Translations under genes and position numbers: made by a program
Source of the DNA: PVC group bacterium
GTDB lineage: Bacteria > Verrucomicrobiota > Kiritimatiellia > CAIKKV01 > PXCX01
Assembly: GCA_003567575.1 (NCBI GenBank)
Contig: PWZG01000382.1
Location: forward strand, 1 to 33,207
Length of the DNA: 33,207 nucleotides
Reading direction: 5' to 3'
Part shown: positions 826 through 33,207 of the stretch, in pieces
Numbering within the stretch: the first letter of the stretch is position 1
Layout: each line of letters starts with the position of its first letter
Notes under the pieces: model-generated
Databases searched by the model: none
What the model was told of the DNA's origin: nothing
The model's input: the letters and a program-made list of their open reading frames with translations, nothing else

Positions 826-962
826 CATGTAACAACCATCTTGACGTATTTAGTGCCTTAAACACACGAAACCGCCATAAAAAACAAGAAAACCGTTAGC
901 CGTTCACTCGCGTGGTCTCCCTCTCCCTCTGGGAGAGGGCCGGGGTGAGGGTTGGCGAAGCC

Positions 963-1058
963 ATTAGTGACTTATTCAAGCATGTTTGCGCAGAAAAACA
1001 AGAAGATTTATGCGGAACTGATGAATGGAATCGGGTGTCGGGTGTCGAGTGTCGGGTT
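963..1058 (+). repeat. Interspersed repeat copy A: conserved core plus a GTGTCGG heptamer tract
   Basis: attagtgacTTATTCAAGCATGtTTGCGcagAAAAACAAGAAgatttATGCGGAactgATGaATGGaaTCGGG aligns by hand to 32773-32845 with most positions identical and one 1-nt indel. It is followed by GTGTCGG GTGTCGA GTGTCGG at 1033-1057. A short extra fragment, ataaaaaacaagaaaacc, lies at 878-895. Confidence 0.6.
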
Positions 1059-1508
1059 GTTTCCGGAAGATGATTTGGCACAATCATCGCCGTGGATCCA
1101 TGGGGCGCATGTCGCCTGCCTGTGCCGCCACGGCAGACAGGGCCCGACGTACGCCGGGAAAGTTCGACCTCGGGCCCGGACGTCGCCCTCCGGGCACCGG
1201 CGGGTACGCGAGGTCGTGCCATGGGATGCCGAGGTCGGGCCGACCTCGGCCACAAAGAGCCGTGAACATGATCTACGCGAAGCGATGCCTTGCTAACTTC
1301 GATGTTGGACGTTCGCCTCGGCCGGGACGGTTTGCCTATCGTCTTGGGGTTGAAACACCAACACGCGAATGGCACCTTTTCCCTTGAAATCCGCTCCTTA
1401 TGGCAAAACTACAGGTCCCCAGAGTTTGCATCTTGCCGTGGATCGTGGTATCGTTCGCTTTTCCCAAGCGGGGTAACAGTTTTTAAAACGCAATCAAGGA
1501 GAGAAATC

Positions 1509-2877: not shown

Positions 2878-3048
2878 CCTATGGAATAATGGAATATTGG
2901 AATAATGATAGAAGGCCAAAACCGCTATCTTGCAAGCGGAAAAGATGCAATGCAAAATTGGTCCAATGCCTGACGCTGAAACCGTAACCGTCAGAGTGCC
3001 ATAAGTTTCCATCATTCCAATGTTCCCATATTCCAACATTCCGCTAGG
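2878..3048. repeat. Imperfect inverted repeat built from degenerate octamers, flanking a roughly 90-nt centre
   Basis: The left arm at 2878-2915 is cctat GGAATAAT GGAATATT GGAATAAT gatagaag. The reverse complement of the right arm at 3005-3048 is cctagc GGAATGTT GGAATATG GGAACATT GGAATGAT ggaaac. The centre contains small hairpins (ccgct..agcgg and ctgacg..cgtcag). The element lies between the stop at 2870 and the start at 3061. Confidence 0.55.
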
Positions 3049-3060: not shown

Positions 3061-3516
3061 ATGATTGTAGACGATATCAGAAACGCGGTGCTTTATGGCG
3101 GAATCGCCGATCGGATGCGAAGTGCATTCGAATATCTGGTTGTGACGGATTTCGACGATATGGCGTTGGGCAGATACGCGATTGATGGCGACAACCTTTT
3201 CGCGTTGGTTCAGCAGTATGAAACCAAGGCACGAGACCAGGGCGTATGGGAAGCTCATCGCCGGTACATTGACGTGCAATATATCGCTACGGGTATAGAA
3301 ACAATCGGATATGCGCCTATCGATGGATTGAAGGTCACCCAACCTTATGCAGATGATAAGGATTGCGTGTTGCTTGCCGGAAACGGCGATTTCCTGACAG
3401 CCCGCGCCGGGACTTTTTTCGTGTTTTTCCCGGAAGACGCTCACATGCCGGGGTTAACCCATACCACGCCGGGCACGGTGCGTAAGGTGGTCGTCAAGGT
3501 CCTGATTGGGGCCTGA
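3061..3516 (+). CDS. YhcH/YjgK/YiaL family protein (DUF386, beta-galactosidase beta-subunit-like cupin; E. coli YhcH is linked to sialic acid metabolism)
   Basis: The RBS is agGGAGaagtagatt before the ATG. Family hallmarks seen: GRYAIDGDNLFALV, HRRYIDVQY, FFVFFPEDAHMPG and VRKVVVKV. Confidence 0.9.
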   Translation: MIVDDIRNAVLYGGIADRMRSAFEYLVVTDFDDMALGRYAIDGDNLFALVQQYETKARDQGVWEAHRRYIDVQYIATGIETIGYAPIDGLKVTQPYADDKDCVLLAGNGDFLTARAGTFFVFFPEDAHMPGLTHTTPGTVRKVVVKVLIGA

Positions 3517-6682: not shown

Positions 6683-6720
6683 TTTTCCATCATTCCAATG
6701 TTCCAATTTTCCATCATTCC
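6683..6720. repeat. Solitary arm of the octamer (ATTCCAAT-type) repeat, followed by a perfect palindrome gcatccctaagggatgc
   Basis: ttttccatc ATTCCAAT GTTCCAAT tttccatc ATTCCgca resembles the right arm at 3005-3048. It sits immediately upstream of the LmbE-like start codon at 6680. On the minus strand it reads ggaatgatggaaaatt directly before that ATG. Confidence 0.4.
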
Positions 6721-6921
6721 GCATCCCTAAGGGATGCTGGTGGTTTTGTTAATACAACCACGTCATGTCTTGATATCAACCTGTATCACATACGGGCTTC
6801 AATCCGCTACCCAGAGGTCGCGGCACGCGACACCCGGCACCCGTAACTATTACCGTGTTGAAGACGAAGAATCAAGCATATTATTGAGCGGCGGACGCTC
6901 ATTTGGTAAATTACCGGCGAT

Positions 6922-8064: not shown

Positions 8065-8078
8065 GGGTAAACCTCGCT

Positions 8079-9467: not shown

Positions 9468-9560
9468 GGGTATTTCCTGGCCGGATATTCGCGACGGTTG
9501 CTTCCCGTGTTACGGGTACGGCATTATCGTGAACCGGTTGTCTGGTCGTGGTGATGTGGA

Positions 9561-10763
9561 TTAATGCGTCGCGGCCGCTTCGATACGCGCCCACTTATCC
9601 GTTTCCAATATGGCATCCAAGCCGGGGTGGGGGATTGTGTCGTGTCGTTCCATAACACGCTCTACTATACGCCAAATACCCGCAAAAGGCAAGTCGCCAT
9701 CAAGAAATCGTTGTACCGCCACTTCGTTGGCGGCGTTGAGCGCGGCCGGAAACGTGCCGCCCCGGTCCGCTGCCACGCGGGCAAGTTGTAAACACGGAAA
9801 TCGCTGCATATCCGGCGACTCGAAATGTAATGCCGCTGCCTGGGCGAGATCCAGCGGCGGCAAGCCCCCGTCCAGCCGGTCGGGCCAGGTTAAGGCATAC
9901 TGGATGGCGTAACGCATGTCCGGCGGACTCAATTGCGCCAGCAGGTTGCCGTCTACAAACTCGACCAGCGAATGCACCAGGCTTTCGCGGTGTAACAGAA
10001 CGGTAATGCGGTCGACGGAAACCCCGAATAACCAGTGGGCTTCCATGATCTCGAGGCCTTTATTCATCAGTGTCGCGGAATCAATACTGATTTTACGGCC
10101 CATACGCCAACGTGGATGATTCAGCGCCTCTTCGGGGGTCACCTTCTCGAAGTCGATATCCGGGCGGAACGCGAACGGGCCGCCGGACGCCGTCAGCAAC
10201 AGACGTCGGACCGATCTTTCGGGTTCGCCGTGTAAACACTGGAACAGCGCGTTGTGTTCGCTGTCGACCGGCAGGATCGGAACTTGCGCCTGCCGGGCCG
10301 CGTCCATGACCAGTTCGCCGGCCGCAACCAATACTTCCTTGGTTGCCAGCGCGATGCGGCAGCCGCGATGGATCGCTTCCAGCACCGGCAGCAGACCGGC
10401 CACACCGTTGACGGCGCAAACCAGTATATCGGCCGTCTGGTCGTTGATCAATTCAACGCAGGCATTCGCGCCGCGGAAAACACGTACGCCGTCCAGCTTG
10501 GTGACCGCCGTCTTGTGTGGCGCTGTAATCGCCAGATGCGATACCCCGTACGCGACCGCCTGCGCGAATAAACGGTCGATGTTGGTTTCCGCCGCCAAAC
10601 CGACGATTTCGAAACGGCCCGGCAAAGAGGAGACAACCCGCAACGTATTTTCGCCGATCGAACCGGTGCTGCCCAGGATAATGATCCGTTGCGGCGCCGC
10701 CGATCCATCGCGAACCGAATCGCCGCGCCCTGCCGTGGAAATAACCTGTGTCGTTGTCTTCAA
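9561..10763 (-). CDS. dxr: 1-deoxy-D-xylulose 5-phosphate reductoisomerase
   Basis: Motifs seen: ILGSTGSIGENTL, PVDSEHNALFQ, LTASGGPF and NKGLEIMEAHWLF. The only in-frame start is TTG 10763, giving a roughly 25-aa N-terminal extension. Confidence 0.9.
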   Translation of the reverse strand: MKTTTQVISTAGRGDSVRDGSAAPQRIIILGSTGSIGENTLRVVSSLPGRFEIVGLAAETNIDRLFAQAVAYGVSHLAITAPHKTAVTKLDGVRVFRGANACVELINDQTADILVCAVNGVAGLLPVLEAIHRGCRIALATKEVLVAAGELVMDAARQAQVPILPVDSEHNALFQCLHGEPERSVRRLLLTASGGPFAFRPDIDFEKVTPEEALNHPRWRMGRKISIDSATLMNKGLEIMEAHWLFGVSVDRITVLLHRESLVHSLVEFVDGNLLAQLSPPDMRYAIQYALTWPDRLDGGLPPLDLAQAAALHFESPDMQRFPCLQLARVAADRGGTFPAALNAANEVAVQRFLDGDLPFAGIWRIVERVMERHDTIPHPGLDAILETDKWARIEAAATH

Positions 10764-10802
10764 GAGTAATCTTCGCTTCGCCCGATTGTTTTCAGAGCTG
10801 CC

Positions 10803-10830
10803 ATAATATCACTCTTGGCCGGATCTGCAA
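10803..10830 (-). promoter_or_regulatory. Candidate sigma70-like promoter for dxr-rseP-ispG
   Basis: The minus strand reads TTGCAG (10830-10825), a 16-nt spacer, then TATTAT (10808-10803), about 40 nt upstream of the dxr start. The promoter consensus of this lineage is unknown. Confidence 0.25.
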
Positions 10831-10894
10831 GTTATCTCAATCCTCGCCGTTTTTTCCTCTCACAAACCGGCACCCCGCATACCAACGCTCACGT

Positions 10895-12292
10895 TCACTT
10901 TCCTCGTGCCGGCGGCAGATGGATGCAATGACCGTTGGCGGCCTCCGCCGCTTCCATCCAGGATTCCGACAGGGTGGGGTGGGCATGGATCGTGTGCGCA
11001 ATTTCCGTCACCGTCAATTCGGCGCGAATGGCTACCGTCGCTTCGGCAATCAATTCTGTGGCGTGCGGACCAACGGACTGCGCGCCCAGTAACTGGCCGG
11101 TGTCGGCGTCGGCAATCCATTTGACGAAACCGGTGGTGTCTCCCAGCGCCATGGCTTTGCCCAGCGCCATGAACGGGAATCGTCCGGATATCACGTTACG
11201 TTCCTGCTCCCCGGCCGCCAGTTCTCCCATGCCGACCGCACCGACTTCCGGGGTCGTGAAGATACAGGCGGGAACCAACGTCTCCAGGCGGGCACGTTCT
11301 TTGCCGAACCAATTGTCGACGATACGCAACGCCTGACTGGTGGCGGCATGTGCCAGTTGGGGTCCGCCGTTGACGTCGCCGGCGGCGGCAATCGATGCCG
11401 TACGCGTCAGGCCCCAGGCATCGACAGGAATGTAACCGCGTTCATCAAGCGACAGACCGGCTTTTTCCAATGCTAATCCCTCAGTGACCGGAATCCGGCC
11501 GACCGCGGACAGCAACAGTTCCGCGTTTACGGACTCGTCGCCGCAACGGCCGCTAACTTTTTTGTCATCGGCTTCGATATCTTGCAGCGCCTGTCCCGTA
11601 AGGATCCGGATTCCGAGATTCTTTGTCATTGCATCGCGTACGGTACGGCGCACATCTGTATCCAGAGTCGTCAGAATATCATCCAACAATTCGACAATCG
11701 TCACCTTGACGCCCAGACGGGCGGCCATGCAGGCGAATTCGCAACCGATAATGCCGCCGCCGAGTACAATCAATGATTTGGGTAAACTGTCGATATCGAG
11801 AAACCCGCGACTGTCAACCACCCGCGCATGATCCGGCAGAAACCGCGGTCGCGCCGGGGTGGTACCCGTGGCGATCAGCACGCGTTTTGCCGACACGATC
11901 TCTTCCACGCCGTCGGCCTTTTGCACCACGATATGGGTGCGGTCCCGGAACCGTGCGGTCCCCGTAAGGTGCTCAATCTTGTTCCCTTTGAGCAAGCCCT
12001 TGATGCCTTTACGCAATCCGTCGACCACCGAATTCTTGCGCGCGATCATTTTTCCGTAATCTACCGTCGGTTTACCGTGTTGAATCCCGTAATCGGCGGA
12101 CTCCATGGCCGACGCGTAGCGGTCGGCCGCCGAAATCAGGGTTTTGGTGGGAATACATCCCCAGTTCAGACACGTGCCGCCCAGTTGTTCCCGCTCGATG
12201 ATGACGACGCGCGCACCGTGTTGTGCCGCGCGGATCGCCGCCGGATAGCCGGCGGGACCGGCGCCAATAACTACGAGGTCAACGTTTTCCAT
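10895..12292 (-). CDS. lpdA: Dihydrolipoyl dehydrogenase (E3)
   Basis: Motifs seen: VVIGAGPAGYPAAIRAA (FAD fold), GGTCLNWGCIPTK (redox disulfide) and a C-terminal HAHPTLSE block. The RBS GGAGGA lies inside the 3' end of the E2 gene. The two genes overlap by 22 nt. Confidence 0.9.
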   Translation of the reverse strand: MENVDLVVIGAGPAGYPAAIRAAQHGARVVIIEREQLGGTCLNWGCIPTKTLISAADRYASAMESADYGIQHGKPTVDYGKMIARKNSVVDGLRKGIKGLLKGNKIEHLTGTARFRDRTHIVVQKADGVEEIVSAKRVLIATGTTPARPRFLPDHARVVDSRGFLDIDSLPKSLIVLGGGIIGCEFACMAARLGVKVTIVELLDDILTTLDTDVRRTVRDAMTKNLGIRILTGQALQDIEADDKKVSGRCGDESVNAELLLSAVGRIPVTEGLALEKAGLSLDERGYIPVDAWGLTRTASIAAAGDVNGGPQLAHAATSQALRIVDNWFGKERARLETLVPACIFTTPEVGAVGMGELAAGEQERNVISGRFPFMALGKAMALGDTTGFVKWIADADTGQLLGAQSVGPHATELIAEATVAIRAELTVTEIAHTIHAHPTLSESWMEAAEAANGHCIHLPPARGK

Positions 12293-13665
12293 AACTCCAT
12301 ATCCTCCAGTTTGTCTTTGACGGCATTGATGAACCGCGCACCGACGGATCCGTCGATGATGCGGTGATCGCTCGATACCGTCATTTTCATCATTGAGCGT
12401 ACCACGATCTTCCCGTCGCGAACGACGGCCTTCGGCTGCGTCGAGGCGACCGCCAGAATGGCGCCTTCGCCCGGATTAATGATCGCGGTAAAATTCTCCA
12501 CATTCAACATGCCCATGTTGGAGACGGTGAACGTGCTGCCGCTCATTTCATCCGGCAACAGTTTCCCGTCGCGTGCCTTGGTCGACAACGTAACGATCTG
12601 CTGTTGCAATTCAGATAGGTTCAGCGTTTCCGCATCACGTATGACCGGGACCACCAGGCCCTCTTTCAGCGCGGTCGCCATGCCCAGATGAATATGGCTG
12701 TTCCAAATCACCGTATGATCTTCGTAACGGCTGTTGACGACCGGAAACGCTTCCAGCGCCAGGATTACCGCTTCGATAATAAATACCGTTACCGTATAGT
12801 CCTTGCCCGTTTCCTTGAGCTGACGCCGTAGTTGCAGTAATTCGGTCATATCGACGTCTACCGTAACATAAAAATGCGGCGTTGTGGTAAAACTCTGCGT
12901 CAGGCGGTCGGCGATGACCGAGCGCATGCGGTTCATTGGCTGCGGCCGTTCCGCCAATGCGCGCCGGATATCTGTAACCAGGATGCGGCCACCGTCACCG
13001 CTGCCGCGGACGCTCAATACGTCGATCCCTTCCGCAATCGCCAATACCAGTGCGGCAGGCGTTATCGGGCGCTGATCGTAACCTTGCTCGGATAGATAGC
13101 GGCGAACGTCGGCTTCAACAATGCGGCCGCCGGGTCCCGTACCGGCAATCGAACGGTAATCGATCGCCGAACGCCTTGCCAATGCACGGGCACGCGGCGA
13201 AATCGCTTTCCGTTCCACGGTTGGCGCCGGCGTCGGCGCGGTGGCGGGTGCGGATGCCGGACGCGATACGGCCGGCGTTGCGGCGGATACCGTTGGTTGC
13301 GGCGTTGTCGCCGGGGCCGCGGCCGCGGGAGCGGTCGATTCCGGTTTGGCTGTGGCGGCGGGTGTCGCCGCAGTCGCAGCCGCCGGTGCCGCCGGTGCCG
13401 CCGGCGGCGCATCAGGGATAGTTTCGCCCGGTGCGCCGATGTATCCGACAACCGACATCACGGGAACGGTTTCCCCTTCGTCGACGAATGTTTTCAGTAA
13501 GGTGCCTTCAAAGAAGCTTTCGACTTCGAGCACGGCTTTATCGGTCTCGATCTCAAAGAGAATGTCTCCTTTATCGATCTTGTCGCCAACGGTTTTATGC
13601 CATTTGACGATGGTTGACTCTTCGGCTGTTTGGCCGAGTTTGGGCATTGTAATCGCTTGTGCCAT
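12271..13665 (-). CDS. Dihydrolipoamide acyltransferase (E2) of a 2-oxoacid dehydrogenase complex
   Basis: The protein has a lipoyl domain (EIETDKAVLEVES), an Ala/Pro-rich linker, a peripheral-subunit-binding segment (SPRARALARRSAIDY) and a catalytic domain with SSDHRIIDG. Confidence 0.9.
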   Translation of the reverse strand: MAQAITMPKLGQTAEESTIVKWHKTVGDKIDKGDILFEIETDKAVLEVESFFEGTLLKTFVDEGETVPVMSVVGYIGAPGETIPDAPPAAPAAPAAATAATPAATAKPESTAPAAAAPATTPQPTVSAATPAVSRPASAPATAPTPAPTVERKAISPRARALARRSAIDYRSIAGTGPGGRIVEADVRRYLSEQGYDQRPITPAALVLAIAEGIDVLSVRGSGDGGRILVTDIRRALAERPQPMNRMRSVIADRLTQSFTTTPHFYVTVDVDMTELLQLRRQLKETGKDYTVTVFIIEAVILALEAFPVVNSRYEDHTVIWNSHIHLGMATALKEGLVVPVIRDAETLNLSELQQQIVTLSTKARDGKLLPDEMSGSTFTVSNMGMLNVENFTAIINPGEGAILAVASTQPKAVVRDGKIVVRSMMKMTVSSDHRIIDGSVGARFINAVKDKLEDMELWKTLTS

Positions 13666-13738
13666 GATGTGGCTCTCCCTTTTTATAATGTCGTGTCGTT
13701 CAAGGCGCTGACCATTGAACGGTTGAACCCTTCATGCT

Positions 13739-16036
13739 TCATACCAATTGTTTGGCGGCGTTGACAATGTCGGCGGCCGTCGGCAGAAAGGCGGCTTCCA
13801 GAATATGCGATTGCGGCGCAATCCCGTTCTTGGCGCCAACCCGCAACACCGGCGCGTCCAGGTCGTCGAAGGCTTCAGCCATAATCGTCGAGGCGATTTC
13901 GCCGGTAAAACTACCAATATTGATGGCCTGCGACACCACGATGCAGCGACCGGTCTTACGGACCGATGCCAGAATGGTGTCCATATCCAGCGGTACCAGG
14001 CAGCGGATATCGACGACTTCCACGTCGAGTCGCATCTCGGTCCCGATGATGTCGGCGGCTTTCAGCGCATCCGCGACGGCGGGTCCCCAGGTGACGATCG
14101 TCAGATCCTTGCCCGCCCGTTTGATGTCGGCCGTGCCCAACGGGATGATGGTGTCACCCTCCGGGACGACCGATTTCTCGCCGTAAAGCAACTGGGATTC
14201 GACGAAAAGCACCGGGTTATCGTCGCGAATCGCCGCTTTCAGCATGCCTTTGGCGTCGGCAGCGGTTGACGGATAAGCCACGTACAGACCCGGGATATGG
14301 GCAAACATGCTTTCCAGCGTTTGCGAATGCTGGCCGCCGTATCCTTTGCCGCCGCCGACCGAGGCACGGATGACGAGCGGAATTTTTACGTTGGCGCCGG
14401 ACATATAATGCCACTTGGCCGCCTGATTGCTGATCGCGTCGGAAGCCATCAAGGCGAAATCCATATACATCAGTTCGACCACCGGACGCAGCCCCGACAT
14501 CGAGGCGCCGACCGCCGTACTGCAGATCGCGGCTTCCGAAATCGGCGTATTGAATACGCGCTGACGGCCGAAGGTTTCCAGCAGATGTTTGGTGGCCTTG
14601 AAGGCGCCGCCGTAATCGGCCACGTCTTCACCATAAAAAATCACCCGGTTATCGCGAATCATTTCCTCGAGCAACGCTTCCTTGATTGCATCGCGGTACG
14701 TCAGCATGCCGTCGGCCGTCCGCTTGATTTCCGGCGGAGGATTGATCAACGTCGTCTTGGCATGAGCCTCGGGAACCTTGTCCGCACACGTGTCGGTGTA
14801 CATGAACTTGATCACATCCGCCGGATCCGGATCGGCCGCCGCCGCTGCCGCGCGCGCTGCCGCCGCGTTACGGTCGATGACGCGTTGCTGCAACGTCTTC
14901 AACGTTTTCGGCGTCAATATCTTGGCATCCAGCAGTTGTTGCGAGTAGGTAGCGATCGGATCGACCGTACGCCATGCTTCTTCTTCCTCGCGCATACGGT
15001 ATTCGTTGCGCGGATCGCTTAGCGAATGACCGTAGTAACGGTAGGTATCCACTTCGATCAAATACGGACCCTGTCCCTTGCGGCAACCGGCCGATGCCCG
15101 GTGGATCGCGTCGCGAACCGCCAGAACATCCATGCCGTTGACCGTTTCCGCGTGCATGTTGTTGTCCGCGAACCCGGCTGCGCGACGGGCCAGCGGATCA
15201 ACGCCCAGGACTTCCTCGTCGGCACGGCCCGTCATGCCATAGTGATTGTTCAAGATGACAAAGATAATCGGCAACCCGAAGGCGTCATCTTTGGCCAGAT
15301 GATTGGTAAACTGTTTCTGGGCAGCCCAGTTGAGCGATTCCAAAACAATACCGTTGGCATAGGCGCCGTCGCCCGCGAACGATAAAGTCACACGCCCGTT
15401 CTTGAGGTAGCGGCACGTCATCGCCGCTCCCGTCGCAATCGGTACGCCGCCGCCCACAATCGCGTTCGCACCCAGATGGCCCAGCGCAAAATCGGCAATA
15501 TGCATGCCGCCGCCGCGACCGCGACAATAACCGGCTTCCTTCCCGAATAATTCGGCGATGGTTCGGAAGATATGATCCTCCAGTGCCGCATCCAGCAATT
15601 GTTTACGCGTTTTAGCTTCAGATTCCGGTACGCGCTGCCGTAACGCATCGGTATCGAGCGAACGCAACGCAATCATTCCCTTGGCAATACTGTCGCCATG
15701 GCCGCGGTGTGTTGAGGTAATGTAGTCCAACGGCGCCAACCCCGTGCAGGCGCCGACGGATGCCGCTTCCTGGCCGATCGAAACATGCGTCGGCCCGCGG
15801 TAATTGAAACCTTGAATCGGTTCGTAGGCGTCGGAACGCAGTTTGACGATCATCTCCTCGAATTCGCGGATCGTCAGCATGTCTTCCAATAAGTCGATGG
15901 CTTGCCCGCGCGTCACGACGCCGGCATCCAGTTCTTGTTTAACTGTGCCTTTGTAACCATAACAAGGGATTGTGCCGCAGGATACTTTGCGCGGTTTGAA
16001 TACCGGTTGCAGGTTGCTCAGAAAGTTCGGACTCAT
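13739..16036 (-). CDS. Fused E1 alpha-beta subunit of a thiamine-diphosphate-dependent 2-oxoacid dehydrogenase
   Basis: The N-terminal half carries the E1-alpha TPP motif (GDGAYANG...NN). The C-terminal half is E1-beta-like (FGEDVADYGGAFKATKHLLETFG, FNTPISEAA). All of this lies in one 765-aa frame. The RBS AAGGAG precedes ATG 16036. Confidence 0.9.
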   Translation of the reverse strand: MSPNFLSNLQPVFKPRKVSCGTIPCYGYKGTVKQELDAGVVTRGQAIDLLEDMLTIREFEEMIVKLRSDAYEPIQGFNYRGPTHVSIGQEAASVGACTGLAPLDYITSTHRGHGDSIAKGMIALRSLDTDALRQRVPESEAKTRKQLLDAALEDHIFRTIAELFGKEAGYCRGRGGGMHIADFALGHLGANAIVGGGVPIATGAAMTCRYLKNGRVTLSFAGDGAYANGIVLESLNWAAQKQFTNHLAKDDAFGLPIIFVILNNHYGMTGRADEEVLGVDPLARRAAGFADNNMHAETVNGMDVLAVRDAIHRASAGCRKGQGPYLIEVDTYRYYGHSLSDPRNEYRMREEEEAWRTVDPIATYSQQLLDAKILTPKTLKTLQQRVIDRNAAAARAAAAAADPDPADVIKFMYTDTCADKVPEAHAKTTLINPPPEIKRTADGMLTYRDAIKEALLEEMIRDNRVIFYGEDVADYGGAFKATKHLLETFGRQRVFNTPISEAAICSTAVGASMSGLRPVVELMYMDFALMASDAISNQAAKWHYMSGANVKIPLVIRASVGGGKGYGGQHSQTLESMFAHIPGLYVAYPSTAADAKGMLKAAIRDDNPVLFVESQLLYGEKSVVPEGDTIIPLGTADIKRAGKDLTIVTWGPAVADALKAADIIGTEMRLDVEVVDIRCLVPLDMDTILASVRKTGRCIVVSQAINIGSFTGEIASTIMAEAFDDLDAPVLRVGAKNGIAPQSHILEAAFLPTAADIVNAAKQLV

Positions 16037-16079
16037 AATGCTACTCCTTTTTTTTGATGAAAATGTTTGTTGTAGAAGG

Positions 16080-16859
16080 TTAAACCGTTGTTACGCGAAT
16101 TCCCTGTTTGCGCAACGTACGCGCCGTTGCCGCACGCAGATTACTATCGGTAATCAAGGTATGAATGTTTTTCGAATCGCCAAAATGTACAAACGATGTC
16201 CGCCCGATTTTCGTGCTGTCGGCCAGCAATACCGTTCGCCGCGCGCGCGCCATTATCAGGCGCTTGGTAAACGCTTCATTGGGATCGGTCGTCGTCATGC
16301 CGTTCTCAACCGTCAAACCGAGGGTACCCACGAATGCAATGTGGGCCTGTATCTGCTCCAATAAAAACCCGGTCAGCGGCCCCACGAACGTCTGACTCAG
16401 GCGCCGCAACTCGCCGCCCGTAAGGATCAGGCGCGGACCGCCTCCGGAAAGCTCGACGGCGACACGCAACGAATTGGTCACAATGGTTATGTCGGACCGT
16501 TCCCGTAAAAGCAGCGCCAGCGCCAGCACCGTGCTGCCGCCGTCCAAAAAAACTGAATCGCCGCGACCGACCATGCGCGCCGCCGCCGCCGCAATCCGGC
16601 GTTTCTCGCGCACGGCGCGTGCCGTCTTGTCGTCGAATACCGGCTCTTCCATGGCGCCGTCGCGCGAGACCGCGCCGCCGTGAACCCGCTGCAACACACC
16701 GTTACGTTCCAGCGCCAGTAAATCTCGACGGACCGTCGCCGCCGATACGCGCAACGTCCGGCTGAACTCGGTCACGCTGACAACATGCCGCTCGCGCAGG
16801 ATTTTCCGCATTGTTTCCCGCCGTTTGGCGGCCAGATCTTTGTTGTTACGATTGCTCAT
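16080..16859 (-). CDS. DeoR family transcriptional regulator
   Basis: The N-terminal wHTH reads RETMRKILRERHVVSVTEFSRTLRVSAATVRRDLLALERNGVLQRVHGGA. A C-terminal DeoR sugar-phosphate-binding domain follows. The start is either ATG 16859 (preferred) or ATG 16889. Confidence 0.85.
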   Translation of the reverse strand: MSNRNNKDLAAKRRETMRKILRERHVVSVTEFSRTLRVSAATVRRDLLALERNGVLQRVHGGAVSRDGAMEEPVFDDKTARAVREKRRIAAAAARMVGRGDSVFLDGGSTVLALALLLRERSDITIVTNSLRVAVELSGGGPRLILTGGELRRLSQTFVGPLTGFLLEQIQAHIAFVGTLGLTVENGMTTTDPNEAFTKRLIMARARRTVLLADSTKIGRTSFVHFGDSKNIHTLITDSNLRAATARTLRKQGIRVTTV

Positions 16860-16869
16860 GAATGCATGG

Positions 16870-16901
16870 ATATGATCAAAAGGAAGCATATTTGATCATA
16901 T
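16870..16901. promoter_or_regulatory. Candidate operator: 11-bp perfect inverted repeat ATATGATCAAA-N10-TTTGATCATAT
   Basis: The arms are at 16870-16880 and 16891-16901. The site lies directly upstream of the DeoR start at 16859, within the divergent intergenic region shared with the FAD oxidoreductase gene. Confidence 0.35.
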
Positions 16902-16967
16902 ATGTGCGAAAAAAGCAAGCATAAAAAATCAGTTTAGCATCTTAATCTAGCGCCTCTCGTGTAAGTA

Positions 16968-17024
16968 CAAAAAAATGATGCGGAGATTATGGATGGGATT
17001 CAGTGTCGGGTGTCGCGTGTCGCC
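16968..17024 (+). repeat. Interspersed repeat copy B (right half of the core plus a GTGTCGS heptamer tract)
   Basis: caaaaaaATGATGCGGAGattATGGATGGgattca GTGTCGG GTGTCGC GTGTCGC matches the right half of copies A, C and D. It is followed by ggcgaagcc (17032-17040), which precedes the core in copy A (954-962). Confidence 0.5.
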
Positions 17025-17226
17025 GACCAGGGGCGAAGCCCGTCTTAGACCATGGTTGGTCGTTTAAGTCGACACAAGATTGCACAAAAATAATGCTTCG
17101 CGGGTTCATCAAAAAAGATACACGCAAAAGACATGTATGCGCGCCGAAAAGACTATAAAACACCAAATTTTGTCCTGTACTTTTGGTTTATCCGCGGGTA
17201 TGATTGAATTCGAATAGAGAGAGCAG

Positions 17227-18570
17227 ATGATTGAAACGATACAGAGCGATGTTATGGTTTGCGGCGGCGGTCCGGCGGGGATCGGCGCGGCTGTGGCTGC
17301 CGCGCGTTTAGGCCGGCAGGTGACGCTGGTTGAGCGTCATCCCATGCTGGGCGGTATGGGAACGGCGGCGTTGGTCAATAATTTTTGCCCGGCACATTTT
17401 GACCGGGAACGTTTTATTATAGGCGGTATATTTGCCGAATTGCGCGACCGACTGATTTCACGCAAGGCGCTGTACGCGATCCGCCCCACGGACACTGTTC
17501 ATCCCAGGATGGAACCCTATGATCCGGACGTGTTCGCGGAAGAGGCGCTGGCTTTTTGCCGTGACGCCGGCGTGGATGTTCTGCTTGAACGCCGGGTAGC
17601 CAACGCCGATTTCCAGCCAGCGCTTGCGTGCGCTGTTACTTTCGATGACGGCACGCAACGGAAGGCCGACGTAGTCGTGGATGCGACCGGTGACGCCGAA
17701 ATCGCGGCGGCCGCAGGCGTGCCGTGCTTGTTTGGGGAGGACGGCACACAGGCCGTCATGCCGCTGAGCTTATGCTACCTGATGGGGCCGATTGATCTTG
17801 ATGTCGCGCAACGCGAATTCCCGGAATCGGTATCGTATGATCCGAACCTTGACGAACATTATTTCTACTATACCGGAGCCAATCCCCGCGTACTTGCCTG
17901 GGTAGCGGACGCGCGCCGTTTAGGCGAACTGAGTATCCCCGTCAAAGGTATTGCCGCCATCATGAGCCTGCCGGGGCGGCCGTGGATTGCCATGGTAAAT
18001 TTCGGGCGCGTGGATATCCAGGACCCAACTGATCCGCGACTACTGGCAGACGCCACGGACGCTGGACGCCGACAAGTCGAGGAGGGGATACGCTTCTTCC
18101 GCAAGCACATGCCGGGAATGGACCGCGTCGAATTGGTGCAACTGGCACACCGGATCGGCGTGCGTGAATCGCGCCGGATTGTCGGCCGCTATACGCTGAC
18201 GGGCGGGGATGTCCGCGCCGGCCGCCAGTTCGATGATTGCATCGCGCAATGTTGCTATGCCATTGATGTGCATCATAATGGCCGCGATACGACCCTGCTG
18301 GAACCTTTTATGCGCGGTCGGCATTTCGATATCCCGTGGCGCAGCCTGGTGCCCATCGCCGGCCCTCCGAATCTTGTCGTTGCCGGACGCAGTATCGGCG
18401 CGGAGCGGGAGGCCATGAGCAGTTTTCGAGTTAGCCCGAGCTGTATGGCCATCGGTCAGGCGGCCGGCGCCGGCGCCGCGCTTGCGCTACAAAGCGGCGG
18501 TGTGATCGGTGACGTGGATTACGACGATTTGCGTCGCGTCCTTCTCGATCAAGGCGCGATTATTGCCTGA
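17227..18570 (+). CDS. FAD-dependent oxidoreductase (PF12831-like)
   Basis: The N-terminal dinucleotide fold is VMVCGGGPAGIGAAVAAARLGRQVTLVERHPMLGGMGT. There is no signal peptide. Confidence 0.85.
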   Translation: MIETIQSDVMVCGGGPAGIGAAVAAARLGRQVTLVERHPMLGGMGTAALVNNFCPAHFDRERFIIGGIFAELRDRLISRKALYAIRPTDTVHPRMEPYDPDVFAEEALAFCRDAGVDVLLERRVANADFQPALACAVTFDDGTQRKADVVVDATGDAEIAAAAGVPCLFGEDGTQAVMPLSLCYLMGPIDLDVAQREFPESVSYDPNLDEHYFYYTGANPRVLAWVADARRLGELSIPVKGIAAIMSLPGRPWIAMVNFGRVDIQDPTDPRLLADATDAGRRQVEEGIRFFRKHMPGMDRVELVQLAHRIGVRESRRIVGRYTLTGGDVRAGRQFDDCIAQCCYAIDVHHNGRDTTLLEPFMRGRHFDIPWRSLVPIAGPPNLVVAGRSIGAEREAMSSFRVSPSCMAIGQAAGAGAALALQSGGVIGDVDYDDLRRVLLDQGAIIA

Positions 18571-18639
18571 TAATTTGATATACGAAAAAAGGACCGCGCG
18601 TCGAACATGCCATCCTCCGTTTACTTACTTCCGACATTT

Positions 18640-18946
18640 CTGTGCGCAAACTGGACCATAGAACTTGGGTTCGCCGGCACGGCCCAGTTCATCACTATTT
18701 TTACAAGGTAAGTGTTTGACCATAATACGTGCAAAATGTACGATGCCTGGGCGAGATATCAATGCCCGAGTATATCGTCGGTTAATCTCTGATCAGTGCC
18801 GAGACCTACGCCTGTTTCGCCGTGGTCCGCACTGGGATGGCGTATCCGCGCGAAGCTCTGGAACAGGCGTGGAAGAACGTGTTGTTCAATCAGTTCAATG
18901 ATATTTTTTGCGGTTGCAGTATTCACGAGGTGCATGAGAATGAATA
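18640..18946 (+). pseudogene. Decayed internal fragment of a GH38 alpha-mannosidase
   Basis: The frame ending at TAA 18944-18946 reads AETYACFAVVRTGMAYPREALEQAWKNVLFNQFNDIFCGCSIHEVHE. This matches the GH38 block ..YP...L...W..LL.NQFHDI.PGSSI.EV. About 80 codons upstream, in another frame, NWTIELGF resembles the GH38 W.GELY.E block. Stops and frameshifts separate the pieces. Confidence 0.45.
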
Positions 18947-20556
18947 AATGTTTTAATCTTCATGACTATACTGTACGCGGTGACGGGGTATCCGACGACA
19001 CAACCGCGTTGACGCGGTGTTTCAGCGATGCCGGGAAGTCCGGCGGCGGATTTGTCATGATCCCGCCTGGCAACTATTTGCTGTCCGGCAAAGTGTCCGT
19101 GCCGCTCTGTTCCGGTCTGACCATACGGGCACACGGCGCTCGTTTCCATTTGCCCGAATGCCTTGGTGATCGCGCCGCGGTGACGCTGTTCAGCGGCAAC
19201 AACATCCGGGATTTTTCCTGGCAGGGCGGTCATTTCGAAGGACACTGTTTCGATCCCCGCCGGACAGACAACACGTGGGAACCGAACGTCAAAACCCGCG
19301 CCATCGCCATCGCCACGACACGGGGCGGATCGACTGCAAATCTGCGCTTCCGCGACATTACCGGGCATCGTCTGGCGGGCGCCGTGATCAGTGTTCAGGG
19401 AGTGGTCGGCGACGATGTATCCGAAGGCCACGTGGATACGTTCGCCAGCGCCGTCAGCGTTCAGGACTGTAATCTGGTGGACTGCGGTAACTTCATGTGG
19501 GATTACGGGTTGCTCTGGCAGATGGTCGTATGGCCGGAAGACTATACGCCGGCGGAAGTCGAACTTGCCTGGCGTTATTTCCGGCAGGATCTCGTGCGAC
19601 GTCCCGTTCTTATGCAGGACGGCGACGACCGCGTGCGCTTCGATAACACGCGCGACCCGATCGCAGCAAGTCGTCTGGCGGTCGATACCGAAACGTGTTG
19701 CTTTTTCGGCGACACGCTGCCGAACAATTTAAAACGGGGCCGTCGTTACTATATCGTGGATGCCGGAAGCGATTACATCCGAGTGGGCGATGCGCCGGGT
19801 GCTCCGGCCCTCCGCTTCGAGGGGTCGGCGGGATCCGAGGTCGGATTGATTGCCAATCTTTCCCAGGCGTATATGCATCTTTACCGCCCAACGGGGTCCG
19901 GGACGGGGAAGGGCGCCATTGATCTTGTCGCCTGCCGCCAGACCCTGCAAACCGGCAACCGGCTCAGCGCGCTGGGCGACACGCATCATCTGCAGTATTG
20001 CCACGACAATGTCCTGGCCAACAACCAGATCACCGGCTCCCGCATGGGCGCGTTCTTTATCGCCGAATATTGCAAGCATACCGTGGCCACCGGCAATACG
20101 GTTGACGGCACCAATGGGTCGCGGGTCATGAGTGTCGAGAAATCGAGCCAGAACGTCACGATCGCCGGCAACATTTTCCGCAACGGCGGCCGCGGCAGTT
20201 GGATTAATCAGCCGCGCGGGGTTATCCTGCGCGGCAACGTGTTTGAGAACAATACGACCAAAGGCGAACGTGATCCGCGGCGCGGACGGCGATCGTATAT
20301 AACCGGCGACTATGAGCGGTTTCCGGAACTCTACTTCACCATCTACGAACCCAAGGGCCACTATGGTCCGGTCATCATTCGCGATAATGTTTTTGTTACC
20401 GGCCCCGAATGCGCGGCGACCCTTGATTTCTCCAGCCACGGTCACGATATTTTCGTTGAGGGCAACAGCTTTGAAGGCGCGGTCCGTTCCATTCAGGTGG
20501 CGCCCGAATGCGAACGGGTGCATATCGGAGAGAATTCGGGACTGGCGGGCGTGTAG
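18934..20556 (+). CDS. Right-handed parallel beta-helix protein (pectate-lyase-superfamily / Pectate_lyase_3-like putative glycosidase or lyase)
   Basis: The start ATG 18934 follows cacGAGGtgc. The N-terminus FNLHDYTVRGDGVSDDTTALTRCFSDAGKSGGGFVMIPPGNYLL is the canonical start of this fold. Repeated N..I.GN turns follow (ANNQITGS, ATGNTVDG, IAGNIFRNG, LRGNVFENN, IRDNVF, VEGNSFEG). There is no signal peptide. Confidence 0.8.
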   Translation: MRMNKCFNLHDYTVRGDGVSDDTTALTRCFSDAGKSGGGFVMIPPGNYLLSGKVSVPLCSGLTIRAHGARFHLPECLGDRAAVTLFSGNNIRDFSWQGGHFEGHCFDPRRTDNTWEPNVKTRAIAIATTRGGSTANLRFRDITGHRLAGAVISVQGVVGDDVSEGHVDTFASAVSVQDCNLVDCGNFMWDYGLLWQMVVWPEDYTPAEVELAWRYFRQDLVRRPVLMQDGDDRVRFDNTRDPIAASRLAVDTETCCFFGDTLPNNLKRGRRYYIVDAGSDYIRVGDAPGAPALRFEGSAGSEVGLIANLSQAYMHLYRPTGSGTGKGAIDLVACRQTLQTGNRLSALGDTHHLQYCHDNVLANNQITGSRMGAFFIAEYCKHTVATGNTVDGTNGSRVMSVEKSSQNVTIAGNIFRNGGRGSWINQPRGVILRGNVFENNTTKGERDPRRGRRSYITGDYERFPELYFTIYEPKGHYGPVIIRDNVFVTGPECAATLDFSSHGHDIFVEGNSFEGAVRSIQVAPECERVHIGENSGLAGV

Positions 20557-20565
20557 CGCCAGATC

Positions 20566-20630
20566 CAAGCATGTTTGCGTAAAAACAAGAAAAAAATGGC
20601 GCGGAGCTATGGATGGTGTCGGGCAAGCGG
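20566..20630 (+). repeat. Interspersed repeat copy C (core, closest to copy D)
   Basis: cCAAGCATGtTTGCGTAAAAACAAGAAAAAaATGgCGCGGAGCtATGGATGGTGTCGGGCAAGcGG starts 10 nt after the beta-helix gene stop. It shares the GTGTCGGGCAAG junction with copy D. Confidence 0.55.
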
Positions 20631-20676
20631 TCTTCTTCCCGCCCTCTCACCTTTGGCTGAATTATCGAGGAGATGC

Positions 20677-20779
20677 CATGCAAGATATCATTTTCCGGTA
20701 CCACGACAATCCGGTGTTACAAGCCTCGGATATTCCCTATCCGGCAACGCTTATCTTCAATGCGCTGTGCACCGCATAA
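20677..20779 (+). pseudogene. 33-codon stub resembling the N-terminus of a GH130 (beta-mannoside phosphorylase/DUF377-type) protein
   Basis: The stub has an RBS (cGAGGAGatgcc before the ATG). It reads MQDIIFRYHDNPVLQASDIPYPATLIFNALCTA then stop. GH130 proteins begin ..R...NP(I/V)L...D.PYPA..(V/I)FN(P/A). The frame ends just before the RBS of the next gene. Confidence 0.4.
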
Positions 20780-20793: not shown

Positions 20794-21933
20794 ATGAATT
20801 CCAAAGAACGAGTGACCGCGGCCATCGCGCGAAAACATGTGGACCGTGTCCCGCTGGGCTTCTATGCCGTTGACCATGACATTATCGAGCGCGTCATCGG
20901 GCGGCCCACGTTGATTCGCAACAAAATCGAGACCCAGATTGCGATCTGGGAAGGCCGTCGGGATGAACTTGCGGAAAGCTACAAGAAGGACAGTGTAGAG
21001 TTCTACCGCAAAATCGATTGCGCCGATCTCATTCTGTTCAAGGAGGCGCCACTCCTGCCGCCCTCCGACTACGAACCGGATCCTCCGAAGAAAATCGGCG
21101 ACGATATTTGGGAAGACCGCCATGGCCGCGTGTGGCAAGCCGACCGCCATGCAAACGATATCATGTGCTTCAACAAGCCTGCCGCCCATCCCAAGATTTA
21201 CTCGGTCGATGACTTTCCGATTCCCGAGTCCGTCCAACCCCCGTCGCCGTCGATCTTCGAAGCGTTCGACCACCTTCTTCGTGAACTGGGCGAGGAACGT
21301 TACATCTGCGGCCCCATGCACGCGGCGCCAATGCCGATGCTCGGATCGTTCGAGGATGCCATGGTCATCTATGCCACGCAGCCCGAATTGATTCATGCCG
21401 CCAACCGGCGCAACGTGGCGATCCAGCGCCGGCTCGATCAATACTACTGTCGCCCGGGTATGGCGGGTGCGCACGGGGGGCAGGACATGGCCGGCACCAA
21501 CGGCCCGTTCATTTCCCCGGCCATGTGGCGCGAAATGTGTTTACCCACCCTGAAACAGCGAATTCGGGATATCAAACAACATGTCGGCCAAGTCAACTTT
21601 CACGGCTGTGGCAAAACCATCGACCTTCTGGACATGATCGCGGACGCGGGCGTGGACTGCTATCAGTCCCTTCAAACCACGGCCGGCATGGAAATCGGCA
21701 TGCTGAAAGAACGGTTCGGTCAGCGCATGGCCTTTTGGGGCGGCCTCGCGATGGAAACACTGATCACGGGAACCCCCGAAACGGTACGTCAAGCGGTGCG
21801 CACCGCCATGGAACGGGGCGCTCCCGGCGGCGGATTCATCCTCGGCCCCAGCCATTCCGTGGCAAAAAACACGAAATACGAAAACTTTATGGCCATGCTG
21901 GACGAATTCGTCAAACTCCGCGACAGGTACTGA
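20794..21933 (+). CDS. Uroporphyrinogen decarboxylase (URO-D) family protein, MtaA/CmuA-like TIM barrel of unknown substrate
   Basis: The RBS is acAGGAGaaaacc before ATG 20794. The N-terminus MNSKERVTAAIARKHVDRVPLGFY is typical of the family. C-terminal FWGGL...GGGFILGPSHSV blocks are present. The listed ORF start at 20575 is an in-frame extension through the repeat and the stub. Confidence 0.8.
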   Translation: MNSKERVTAAIARKHVDRVPLGFYAVDHDIIERVIGRPTLIRNKIETQIAIWEGRRDELAESYKKDSVEFYRKIDCADLILFKEAPLLPPSDYEPDPPKKIGDDIWEDRHGRVWQADRHANDIMCFNKPAAHPKIYSVDDFPIPESVQPPSPSIFEAFDHLLRELGEERYICGPMHAAPMPMLGSFEDAMVIYATQPELIHAANRRNVAIQRRLDQYYCRPGMAGAHGGQDMAGTNGPFISPAMWREMCLPTLKQRIRDIKQHVGQVNFHGCGKTIDLLDMIADAGVDCYQSLQTTAGMEIGMLKERFGQRMAFWGGLAMETLITGTPETVRQAVRTAMERGAPGGGFILGPSHSVAKNTKYENFMAMLDEFVKLRDRY

Positions 21934-21950: not shown

Positions 21951-22080
21951 GTCTGAGAGACACCCAATATCCAACATCGAACATCGAAGTGAGCGAAAAC
22001 AGGCGTAATACAGAACTCCGGCAACTTATGCTCCTCCGCGTTGGATGTTGGATGTTGGATGTTCGATGTTTTTCTCAGTC
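21951..22080. repeat. Imperfect inverted repeat built from degenerate heptamers, about 18 nt after the URO-D-family stop
   Basis: The left arm is tctgagaga cacccaa TATCCAA CATCGAA CATCGAA gtgagcg (21952-21995). The right arm is gcg TTGGATG TTGGATG TTGGATG TTCGATG tttttctcagt (22038-22079). The outer ctgaga/tctcag segments pair. About 45 nt separate the arms. Confidence 0.55.
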
Positions 22081-22316
22081 ACCCCCCGAAAAATCCGAGC
22101 TTGCTCAAAGGCCCGACTGACCTCTGGATTACAGTAAAAACCCGCCTTATCGCCTTACATTCAGCATCGATTTTTCACGCTTTTCATTGTCGAATATTAC
22201 CACATATTGTCCTTGCGCACGGTGCTCCAATTTAGTATCCTGTTTTTCATGGATACGAGATAAATCCGCCAAAACATTGCACGGAGAGAAGGTCAACATC
22301 GACGCTGGACGTTCCC

Positions 22317-25184: not shown

Positions 25185-25547
25185 CAGGGGATGAAAGAAC
25201 GAATATCGCTTGGAGCCGGCCGCCTGCCCGCCCGCGGCGGGTCCCCGGCCGGATGGGAAACCGTGACGACCATGCGAAGAAACGGCGGGGGATCCGCCTG
25301 CGATGCAGTCGCGACGCGCCGCCGTCTCCAGATATTGGCAGAATAATTTAGGACAGGAATAATTTTCGGAAAGTTTTTTAAGTGGTAACGGTTCGGTTTT
25401 GCCTCAGACGGCGTGCGCTATCAGATTTTTCGGAGCACGATTACGGGCGACGATTACGAGACACGAGGATGAGAGCAGAAGTGTCTGTCCCTTTACGGTC
25501 TTACGGTCATTTCAAGCGATGCAAAACATACCGGATATCAATCCTGT

Positions 25548-32354: not shown

Positions 32355-32558
32355 GAGAAACTCCCTTCTATTGATTTGATCTTTTTCCTAATGCAATAAT
32401 AATAGTATAGGTGACGGGACAGCCTTTTGCGATGGGGTCTAACCCTACCTCGTGCGGCACAGGATCGATCATCTTCGGGAAGATCAGCCTTTCACAATAG
32501 ATTGCGCTGAAAAACCCTCATGTTCCTGGATTCGGAATGGGCAGGCGCCCCACCACGC

Positions 32559-32646
32559 CGTACTCGTACACATACTGTCATACACGCAACTCTCTGTTTT
32601 TAAGCATATTCCAGATTGGGAGTGACCGAGTAGGTGTACGAGTACG
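32559..32646. repeat. 13-bp perfect inverted repeat with a 62-nt spacer
   Basis: CGTACTCGTACAC (32559-32571) and GTGTACGAGTACG (32634-32646) are exact reverse complements. Four more pairs follow inward after one mismatch. The arms again look quasi-periodic (gtactc gtacac atactg). Confidence 0.45.
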
Positions 32647-32772
32647 AATTTGTCGCTACCTGCGCTCGTCCGGCCGAGGACCCGCCGCGGGCGGGCAAGC
32701 GGCCGGCTCCATATTTTGGAGACGGCGGTCTCCGCCGTTATCAGAGCTCTATGTAGCGACAATTCTGAGACG

Positions 32773-32972
32773 ATTAGTCCCTTATTCAAGCATGGTTGCG
32801 TATAAAAACAAGAAAAATGACGCGGAGCCATGGATGGTGTCGGGCAAGAGGTCAGAGGTCGGAGGTCAGAGGCGAACGTCGAACATCGAAGTTAAGAAAG
32901 GCATCTCAAGATTCCCCATTTCGACGTTCCATGTTGACTTTTCGATGTTCTATGTTGGATATTGGATATTCT
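32773..32972 (+). repeat. Interspersed repeat copy D: full core plus heptamer tracts forming an inverted repeat
   Basis: The core spans 32773-32845. It is followed by AGGTCAG AGGTCGG AGGTCAG AGGCGAA CGTCGAA CATCGAA (32847-32890). A roughly 27-nt centre comes next. The right arm is TTTCGAC GTTCCAT GTTGACT TTTCGAT GTTCTAT GTTGGAT ATTGGAT (32918-32967). Confidence 0.6.
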
Positions 32973-33207
32973 CTCATATCCTGAAAAACCTGAGTCGCCC
33001 AAGTGCCCCCACTCGTTTGAGAGAACAGGGAAAACCTGGGCGAAAATCTTCGGGGGGCGAGAACGATGAGTAAACTACCATTCGCTCACCGATTTGCGGC
33101 CGCTGTAGGACGGGATGCCATCCCGTCCCACGAAAGACGCCACAAAAGGATCTTGAGAGGCATCCGTGGCCAGCAAGATCCGTGACCGGTTATCGTCGTC
33201 GCGATCA

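Follow-up and report, generated by a model that had tools for sequence, protein, structure and literature searches.

We analyzed a 33,207-nt stretch of DNA, the window, which is one whole contig (PWZG01000382.1) of a metagenome-assembled genome (MAG) from an uncultured soda-lake bacterium of the Kiritimatiellia. An initial annotation had flagged 258 nt near its right end as the best-preserved copy of a single composite intergenic element. These 258 nt are a patchwork of three lineage-specific non-coding repeat types, not one element: a dispersed core, period-7 arrays, and a tail module. Core, arrays, and tail are independent modules, since the left half of the core, its right half, the arrays, and the tail all occur independently, and only in the flagged copy are core, hairpin, and tail found together. 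The earlier view that the sequence is lineage-specific was borne out. We infer, tentatively and with a confidence just short of even, that the core is a portable 5' regulatory or leader module accompanied by heptamer hairpins that resemble the short tandemly repeated repetitive (STRR) sequences of cyanobacteria. Kiritimatiellia are polysaccharide degraders that are uncultured or barely cultured, and to our knowledge nothing is known of their non-coding DNA. A literature search found no paper linking Kiritimatiellia with intergenic repeats.

Copies and anatomy of the core

A core profile (nhmmer) run on both strands of the window gave five matches, all on the plus strand, and none further (Table 1). 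The recurrence of the core reported previously was recovered by a repeat search (D3, D4, and D9) and by nhmmer (E = 1e-14 to 1e-23 for copies A to D), and the profile added the partial copy A'. All five copies are intergenic, as had been claimed along with their plus orientation; the invariant TAG of copy B (20554–20556) doubles as the stop codon of the open reading frame (ORF) 18796..20556. The core is not confined to the window. Together with copies from three other independent assemblies (L001, a PVC-group MAG from soda-lake sediment; L003, a soda-lake sediment metagenome; and L011, a Logan contig of a strain whose gene-1509 ortholog is >90% identical in protein), the set analyzed comprised eight copies.

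Copies B and C are 82% identical over 79 nt (repeat search D4), or 86.6% over 67 nt in another comparison, and copies A and C are 83% identical over 54 nt. Identity among the left halves of the window copies is 77–86%, the diverged D and A' excepted. Identity between copy C and L003 reaches 98% over a 98-nt stretch that takes in the core and an AGGTCAG array; their flanks are unrelated. Because the similarity extends over such length, the alignments indicate that the copies derive from duplication, i.e., common descent, and are not convergent regulatory motifs. Allowing up to two mismatches, AAAAACAAGAAAA occurs six times against 0.55 expected, with an exact match at 880–892 in copy A'.

The unit common to all eight copies is ~45 nt long and consists of (T/G)TAG, YGCC, TTATTCAAGCATGKTTGCG, an A-run, and CAAGAA. 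A right half (GCGGAG, two to three variable bases, ATGRATGG, and NNTCGGG; also written GCGGAG..ATGGATGG) is present in five of the eight (A, B, C, D, and L003); L001, L011, and A' instead run into unrelated sequences after CAAGAA. In copy A, the left half spans 964–1006 and the right half, GCGGAA..ATGAATGG, spans 1007–1036. The left edge is sharp: TAG is invariant in all copies, and the base before it is either T or G, which gives GTAG in copies B and L003 and TTAG in the remaining ones; no palindrome comes after it. The right edge is fuzzy. The distance from TTGCG to GCGGAG is fixed at 21 nt despite the varying A-run. The core also contains a quasi-palindrome, CAAGCATGKTTG, and an A-tract, and a GC-rich hairpin lies immediately 5' of it in A, B, C, L001, and L003.

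A collection-wide DNA scan with the 23-base pattern AAGCATGNTTGCG-N0-6-AAAAACAAGAA yielded L001 and L003 as the only true relatives; a match in a spirochaete contig (L002) looks like chance (short-spaced match, weak profile E = 0.04–0.05) and was discarded. Viral contigs and plasmids searched for the core gave nothing, and an ORF across the core, used as a handle for more copies, recovered only the window's own ORF. Separately, the heptamer CAAGCAT occurs eight times on the plus strand of the window (five intergenic, three of the eight being core copies), and its reverse complement, ATGCTTG, does not occur.

Gene context and candidate functions of the core

The gene to the right of the core is co-oriented with it wherever known (A, D, and B), and the genes downstream of the copies are unrelated to one another. 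Most copies have a divergently transcribed left neighbor, firmly so for D, C, L001, L003, and L011; the left neighbor of copy B is co-directional with the core, and none of the copies lies in a convergent region. Core A lies ~470–550 nt before the ATG at 1509, and core B ~160–245 nt before the ATG at 20794.

Core copies are not conserved in place, since orthologous sites lack the core in L005, which carries an ortholog of gene 1509 (81% amino-acid identity), and at the URO-D orthologs of L014 and L015. In L011, a gap of 15 nt separates the core from the start codon of a gene for a 309-aa protein; at that point the window carries a PIG-L gene and no core. L016 is 96% identical to window 14207–16937, but immediately beyond the ..TTAG that forms the left edge of core D nothing homologous is left. 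The homology that L011 shares with the window likewise stops at the core edge. Because homology stops there in both, the left edge is a recurrent junction of conserved and exchanged DNA. We found no clean pair of empty and filled sites; at both junctions the right-hand sequence is wholly different. Because L011 carries TTAG at a place where the window lacks it, TTAG is part of the element, and a model in which the core is an insertion sequence (IS) end with TTAG as its target was rejected.

In each of the three other assemblies, the core copy lies no more than ~250 nt from a contig end, and the L011 contig terminates inside the core. In the window, copies lie ~0.4–0.85 kb from each contig end. 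Contigs break at copies in four assemblies, as they would at multi-copy repeats, which points to numerous copies in each genome.

The core always faces the genes that follow it, stands at the head of rightward gene blocks, and has a left edge that coincides with synteny breakpoints. A regulatory or leader module is favored as its identity because the core is copied and polar, occupies this leading position, and contains a quasi-palindrome along with an A-tract and a start resembling a ribosome-binding site. On this proposal, the quasi-palindrome and A-tract would be promoter-proximal DNA, followed by a ribosome-binding arrangement (A-rich sequence, GGAG, 6–7 nt, and ATG). The module would travel with, or be captured by, downstream genes.

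Several observations weigh against a regulatory or leader module. No sigma-70 -35/-10 pair was found in the core on either strand, while canonical promoters exist in the lineage, such as TTGACA-N17-TACGAA with A-tracts in L016. Inspection by eye of both strands for the consensus sequences of sigma-54, sigma-28, sigma-32, extracytoplasmic function, and Bacteroidetes-type promoters gave no convincing match. Gene 1509 has its own promoter ~390 nt downstream of core A, judging from TTGCAT-N17-TATCGT at 1426–1454, a sigma-70-like sequence with an extended -10 that is conserved with L011-13 in surroundings that are not conserved; core A is itself remote from that start codon. The peptides from the conserved ATGs are not conserved. 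The occurrence of all five window copies on one strand reaches only P = 0.06, and the argument draws on eight copies, not on a genome-wide picture.

Two further observations concern promoters near these sites. The sequence CTTATGGCAAAACTACAGG at 1397–1415 stands just upstream of the 1426–1454 promoter; in L001, it is inverted and directly follows the core. L005 has its own repeated upstream element, AAGGAAACAGAATCGAG..TTCGAGT..TTGACTCG, before two consecutive genes (781–850 and 2293–2360); it terminates in a sigma-70-like -35/-10 pair and is a different solution at the equivalent position. A minus-strand promoter for the divergent left genes, suggested by the 15-nt distance in L011, was also considered; it was rejected as a general explanation because of the co-directional left gene of copy B and because TTGAAT/TTGGAT lacks the key A at position 2 of a -10.

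The main rival, compatible with a regulatory module and in our estimate rather unlikely, is that the core is selfish or neutral non-autonomous mobile DNA with no host function, comparable to REP/REPIN, PATE, or miniature inverted-repeat transposable elements (MITEs). A transposase encoded elsewhere would act in trans; it could be a RAYT-like or IS200/IS605-like Y1 HUH enzyme, which cuts beside a fixed tetranucleotide. The bias toward gene starts would reflect where insertions are tolerated. Single-strand HUH transposition, as in IS200/IS605 and REP/RAYT, typically leaves no terminal inverted repeats or target duplications and keeps a constant strand. The core fits this: no terminal inverted repeats or flanking direct duplications were found at any copy, which also sets it apart from MITEs, and its strand is constant. 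The sharp edge with invariant TAG, the near-identical copies at unrelated loci, the presence and absence between strains, the contig breaks at copies, and the GC-rich hairpin just 5' of five copies are likewise in keeping with mobile DNA. However, the core is asymmetric and non-palindromic, with one weak predicted stem that lacks covariation, and the neighboring GC palindromes are separate sequences, so that the imperfect palindrome of ~20–40 nt, forming a stable hairpin, that defines a REP is missing. REPs also have a conserved GT[AG]G tetranucleotide 5' of the palindrome; at the core, GTAG stands at the left edge of B and L003 and TTAG at that of the other copies. nhmmer on both strands gave no inverted partner, inverted doublet, or minus-strand copy. 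Neither a RAYT nor another transposase was present among the ORFs of this 33-kb contig searched against Pfam, and a 551-aa protein beside the L003 copy matches no family. The fuzzy right edge and the entirely different right-hand sequence at both junctions, with no clean empty/filled site pair, also speak against this rival. An attC site is contradicted by the non-palindromic core, its location 5' of genes, the lack of a GTTRRRY pair, and the lack of an integrase among the window ORFs searched in Pfam. By these defining features, the sequence is not a REP, MITE, or attC, in line with the initial annotation, which recognized none of these classes in it.

In a second mobile scenario, which we regard as improbable, the core is recognized by a system, so far undescribed, for site-specific recombination or one-ended transposition. 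By cutting at the invariant TAG of the left edge, the system would relocate or exchange entire rightward gene blocks. This would explain why homology between strains stops exactly at the edge, why a single strand is used, and why the core can adjoin a stop codon, a truncated ORF, or a ribosome-binding site. It would also explain why nearby carbohydrate-related genes have different neighborhoods in close relatives.

A structured non-coding RNA seems very unlikely to us. The core would be a multi-copy small RNA or a cis leader, like a riboswitch or antiterminator target, with a regulatory hairpin after it. Its constant orientation, co-directional with downstream genes, would suit such a role, as would the fixed 21-nt TTGCG-GCGGAG spacing, possibly a loop closed by CAUGGUUGCG/CGCGGAGCCAUG, and the hairpins of L003 (z = -4.0) and of the region at 21.9 kb (z = -3.1). 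Rfam at gathering thresholds, however, gave no match in the window, L001, L003, L011, or L016, and at E up to 10 positions 32500–33207 had only chance-level matches (E > 2). The RNAalifold consensus of the core has an energy of -4.4 kcal/mol with an unfavorable covariation term of +0.6. Of its 14 pairs, one is changed on both sides and several cannot form in A and D, and the CAUGGUUGCG/CGCGGAGCCAUG stem was rejected in view of absent covariation. For the 258-nt element, predicted fold stability does not exceed that of shuffled sequences (z = -0.10 for the plus and -1.44 for the minus strand), and downstream of the core z is +0.56 (A), -0.24 (B), -0.52 (C), and -1.6 (D). No U-runs follow the hairpins at C and D, and L001, L011, and A' share the left half only. 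Of the classes proposed earlier, a mobile or regulatory element in general terms therefore stands, and a structured non-coding RNA, on the RNAalifold result and z-scores, has no support.

Least probable of the explanations considered, at slightly under one chance in ten, is a small gene or upstream ORF, in which GGAG-N-ATGGATGG starts a short peptide (MDGVGQ.. or MVSGKR..) whose translation controls the downstream gene. The A-rich tract, GGAG, and second ATG at 6–7 nt do resemble real starts in the window (GGAGAG-N6-ATG at 1509 and AGGAG-N6-ATG at 20794), and differences in the first four codons include third-position changes (GGT/GGA/GGG and ATC/ATT). Nevertheless, the peptides vary in length (91/56/21/19/22 codons from the first ATG and 120/15/79/24 from the second, L003 being open to the contig end) and are dissimilar after the first four residues. 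Frames shift between copies, heptamer expansions that immediately follow the ATG change the frame, and a 178-aa ORF across copy C has no homolog but itself among 5.8 billion proteins. The copies are thus non-coding with frames that are not conserved, as noted before, although the example then given, that copy A stops after four codons, was not reproduced: copy A is open for 91 and 120 codons from its two ATGs.

Arrays, tail module, and other features of the window

Eleven of the 13 arrays of period 7–8 that Tandem Repeats Finder (TRF) identified in the window are intergenic (P = 2e-8), and the intergenic share of the window is 13.9%. Period-7/8 arrays are a general property of this genome's intergenic DNA, and relatives also carry such arrays with other unit sequences. 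Copy B represents an unexpanded state (..ATGGATGGTGTCGGGCAAGCGGTC..) in which GGTGTCG and AAGCGGTC each occur once. At that point A and D carry 3–4 tandem GGTGTCG-type units, and C and L003 instead carry 3.7–4 AGAGGTC units. Because B has single units where A, D, C, and L003 have multiple ones, the core-adjoining arrays are local tandem expansions of the core's 3' end and, by the same alignments, are not a fixed part of any composite. Heptamer and octamer arrays in general arise in place through tandem duplication of local sequence, including the 3' end of the core, and nearby inverted arrays form hairpins like those of cyanobacterial STRRs. Such arrays would be by-products that sometimes act as stabilizing or terminating hairpins; if they affect anything, it is probably transcript ends or stability.

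The heptamers of copy C read as initially annotated, except that we count eight TTSNATG-type units in the second arm (32920–32975). The others are AGGTCAG/AGGTCGG/AGGTCAG (32849–32869) and CGAACGT/CGAACAT/CGAAGTT (32873–32893). The hairpin ascribed to these arms shrinks to a helix of only ~10 bp (32873–32882 with 32920–32929), and the stability of the 258 nt is no greater than that of shuffles. In L003, the core leads into a strong hairpin, and there alone the core is bracketed by inverted heptamer arrays. The hairpin at 21955–22074 lies 3' of the URO-D-like gene with no core adjoining. A role for GGAUG-containing arrays as CsrA-type GGA decoys was dismissed, as GGA is missing from other arrays and the motifs are located within stems.

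The octamer-armed hairpin at 2881–3044, an array of the same class, sits between two plus-strand genes. Its 39-nt TTCCA-type array occurs on the same strand twice: 3006–3044 abuts the start of a plus-strand gene (3061) and 6684–6722 that of a minus-strand gene (6680). Use of the octamer module is thus independent of gene orientation. Comparison of L011 1536–1580 with window 2865–3490 revealed a strain without the octamer-armed hairpin and the whole DUF386 gene; L011 keeps just the last ~25 nt of that gene, ahead of a LarA-like gene.

The resemblance reported between the tail at 32980–33030 and the sequence at 22080–22115 is real, and L016 has a third relative, which is followed by CCGGTTATCGTCGTCGCGATC, the sequence ending the window. 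The tail is a separate 30–60-nt module found after such hairpins.

Table 1. Core copies, arrays, hairpins, and tail modules in the window
Feature	Position	Strand	Evidence or remark
Core copy A', partial, left half only (TTTAGTGCCTTAAACAC..ATAAAAAACAAGAAAAC)	848..896	+	nhmmer E = 3e-6; added by profile
Core copy A	961..1043	+	nhmmer E = 2e-20; repeat search D3, D9
TCGGGTG x3.9 array, expansion of core A 3' end	1031..1057	+	TRF; copy B, compared with it, is unexpanded
Heptamer-type arm TAACTTCGATGTTGGACGTTCGCCTC, 96% complementary to 32869–32894	1294..1319	+	Repeat search I3
Octamer-armed long hairpin, ATGGAATA x3.4 vs TTCCAWYR units, no core	2881..3044	+	TRF; sequence
Second copy (92%) of the 3006–3044 array	6684..6722	+	Repeat search D10; BLAST
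Core copy D, with a diverged left half and the right half GCGGAG-ATT-ATGGATGG	16933..17011	+	nhmmer E = 4e-14; L016 BLAST and alignment
GTGTCGC x3.0 array continuing core D	17003..17023	+	TRF; repeat search D9
Core copy B, without heptamer expansion	20550..20631	+	nhmmer E = 2e-20; repeat search D4
Hairpin CCAACAT/CGAACAT vs GTTGGAT x4.4	21955..22074	+	Repeat search I2, I14; TRF; RNA fold z = -3.09
Tail module copy CCCCGAAAAATCCGAGCTTGCTCAAAGGCCC	22080..22115	+	Sequence; follows hairpin 21955–22074
Core copy C (flagged copy)	32771..32852	+	nhmmer E = 2e-23; BLAST
AGAGGTC x3.7 array, expansion of the single AAGCGGTC unit seen in copy B	32847..32872	+	TRF
Three CGAACRT-type heptamers, 26-nt center, eight TTSNATG-type heptamers	32873..32975	+	Sequence; folds; repeat search I3, I5
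Tail module CCTGAAAAACCTGAG..GTTTGAGAGAACAGGG	32980..33030	+	Shared with L016 and 22080–22115

The window genes are ordinary chromosomal ones: dxr, gcpE, an rseP-like gene, and genes for pyruvate dehydrogenase E1/E2/E3, DeoR, an FAD oxidoreductase, a beta-helix protein, a URO-D-like protein, DUF4838, and a 2172-aa S8 subtilase. Positions 7228–19960 are 99.4% identical to contig PWKG01000592.1 of GCA_003559795.1. A search across the window found no tRNA or tmRNA, and GC skew merely follows gene orientation, so that the replication strand is not readable from it.

The URO-D-like gene (20794–21933) is ~84% identical at the nucleotide level to L014 4427–5566 and L015 3376–4515. Homology begins no more than 9 nt ahead of the start codon and ends within 6 nt past the stop codon, and the neighbors all differ (a MazE/PIN pair in L014, a sulfatase and glyoxalase in L015). 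The gene behaves like a single-gene cassette. A larger cassette with the core as left end, hairpin and tail as right end, and cargo between was rejected, since this homology stops at the gene's own ends. Between core B and this gene lies a 33-codon ORF (20678–20779; MQDIIFRYHDNPVLQASDIPYPATLIFNALCTA) with a good GAGGAG ribosome-binding site. Its product, which we take to be like the N-terminus of GH130-type glycoside phosphorylases, has no match in Pfam; the ORF may be a gene remnant.

Other intergenic features adjoin the cores or nearby genes. A 43-nt GC-rich palindromic module (25211–25253 and 32669–32711, 95% complementary) brackets the S8 subtilase gene, and similar CGCCTCGGCCGGGAC-type palindromes adjoin cores in L003 and occur at window 1313–1328. 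A GC-rich hairpin motif, CTCCCTCTCCCTCTGGGAGAGGGCCGGGGTGAGGG, lies between cores A' and A (915–950) and is presumably of a type common as an intergenic repeat in other bacteria. Just before core A', a broken reading frame ends (590–812, frame +3; ..TVYTRQQRIAELAG*..LNQYLDVEWLQEAYRLTRKSDTAAG..). We had presumed it to be the N-terminus of a group II intron reverse transcriptase, but searches of PDB and NCBIfam gave no support, and a remnant of such an enzyme left of A' was discarded. The palindrome ATATGATCAAA-N10-TTTGATCATAT (16870–16901) overlaps the annotated start of the DeoR-family gene (16889) and is conserved in L016. It is probably the operator of this gene, whose translation may in fact begin at the ATG at 16859.

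Comparison with known repeat systems

Dispersed mosaic intergenic repeats and heptamer arrays as such are already known. New here are this repeat family, its polarity, its behavior at junctions, and the visible birth of arrays from the core. The copied core marks points at which gene blocks are reshuffled between strains, and these repeats fragment metagenome assemblies of the lineage. Should the core turn out to act as a portable promoter or leader, or else as a site of recombination, the way in which these genomes rewire their carbohydrate-utilization genes would be explained.

Mosaic intergenic repeats include the BIMEs of E. coli, made of REP sequences and linker motifs, and pneumococcal BOX elements (boxA-boxB(n)-boxC). 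The repeats described here are similarly modular, intergenic, and lineage-specific, and the internal repeats that separate conserved modules likewise vary in number. The differences are that there is no sequence relation, the core is non-palindromic without inverted REP pairs, modules also occur alone and reordered, and the repeated unit is 7–8 nt rather than 45 nt.

Reused promoter regions, or putative mobile promoters (Nijveen, Matus-Garcia, and van Passel; PMC3575422), are stretches of 50 nt or more that share ≥80% identity. As in that class, such stretches here precede unrelated genes of one genome, and no known IS or Rfam family explains them. This identity is found for B/C, A/C, and C/L003, with non-paralogous downstream genes. 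Cores A and B, however, lie outside the interval of -150 to -50 from the start codon on which that definition relies, and have no sigma-70 hexamers.

TAACTGA heptamers form intergenic direct repeats in Beggiatoaceae, cyanobacteria, and Bacteroidetes (PMC4679880), and phase-variable genes of Haemophilus influenzae carry 7-bp repeats in the 5' untranslated region (PMC12721329). In both, as here, heptamers stand just before start codons or in 5' leaders, and a post-transcriptional role was proposed. Those repeats have a single unit genome-wide or form long, perfect, slippage-prone arrays, whereas the arrays described here have locus-specific units, are imperfect, and are often paired with an inverted array.

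By description, the arrays also match STRR 7-bp hairpins, which occur between cyanobacterial genes, e.g., hupS-hupL (PMC2670836). Our arrays agree with these in being tandem 7-nt units that are intergenic and hairpin-capable, with inverted arrays forming hairpins between co-directional genes; in both systems the function may concern transcript stability. Unit sequences and phylum differ: cyanobacteria use few unit types genome-wide, whereas in this member of the Kiritimatiellia (PVC group) units vary per locus, and arrays are short (2–4.5 units), sometimes octameric, and in some cases arise from the 3' end of a dispersed core. STRR-like heptamer hairpins are thus not confined to cyanobacteria, and this lineage shows how single units give rise to heptamer arrays at the site where they lie.

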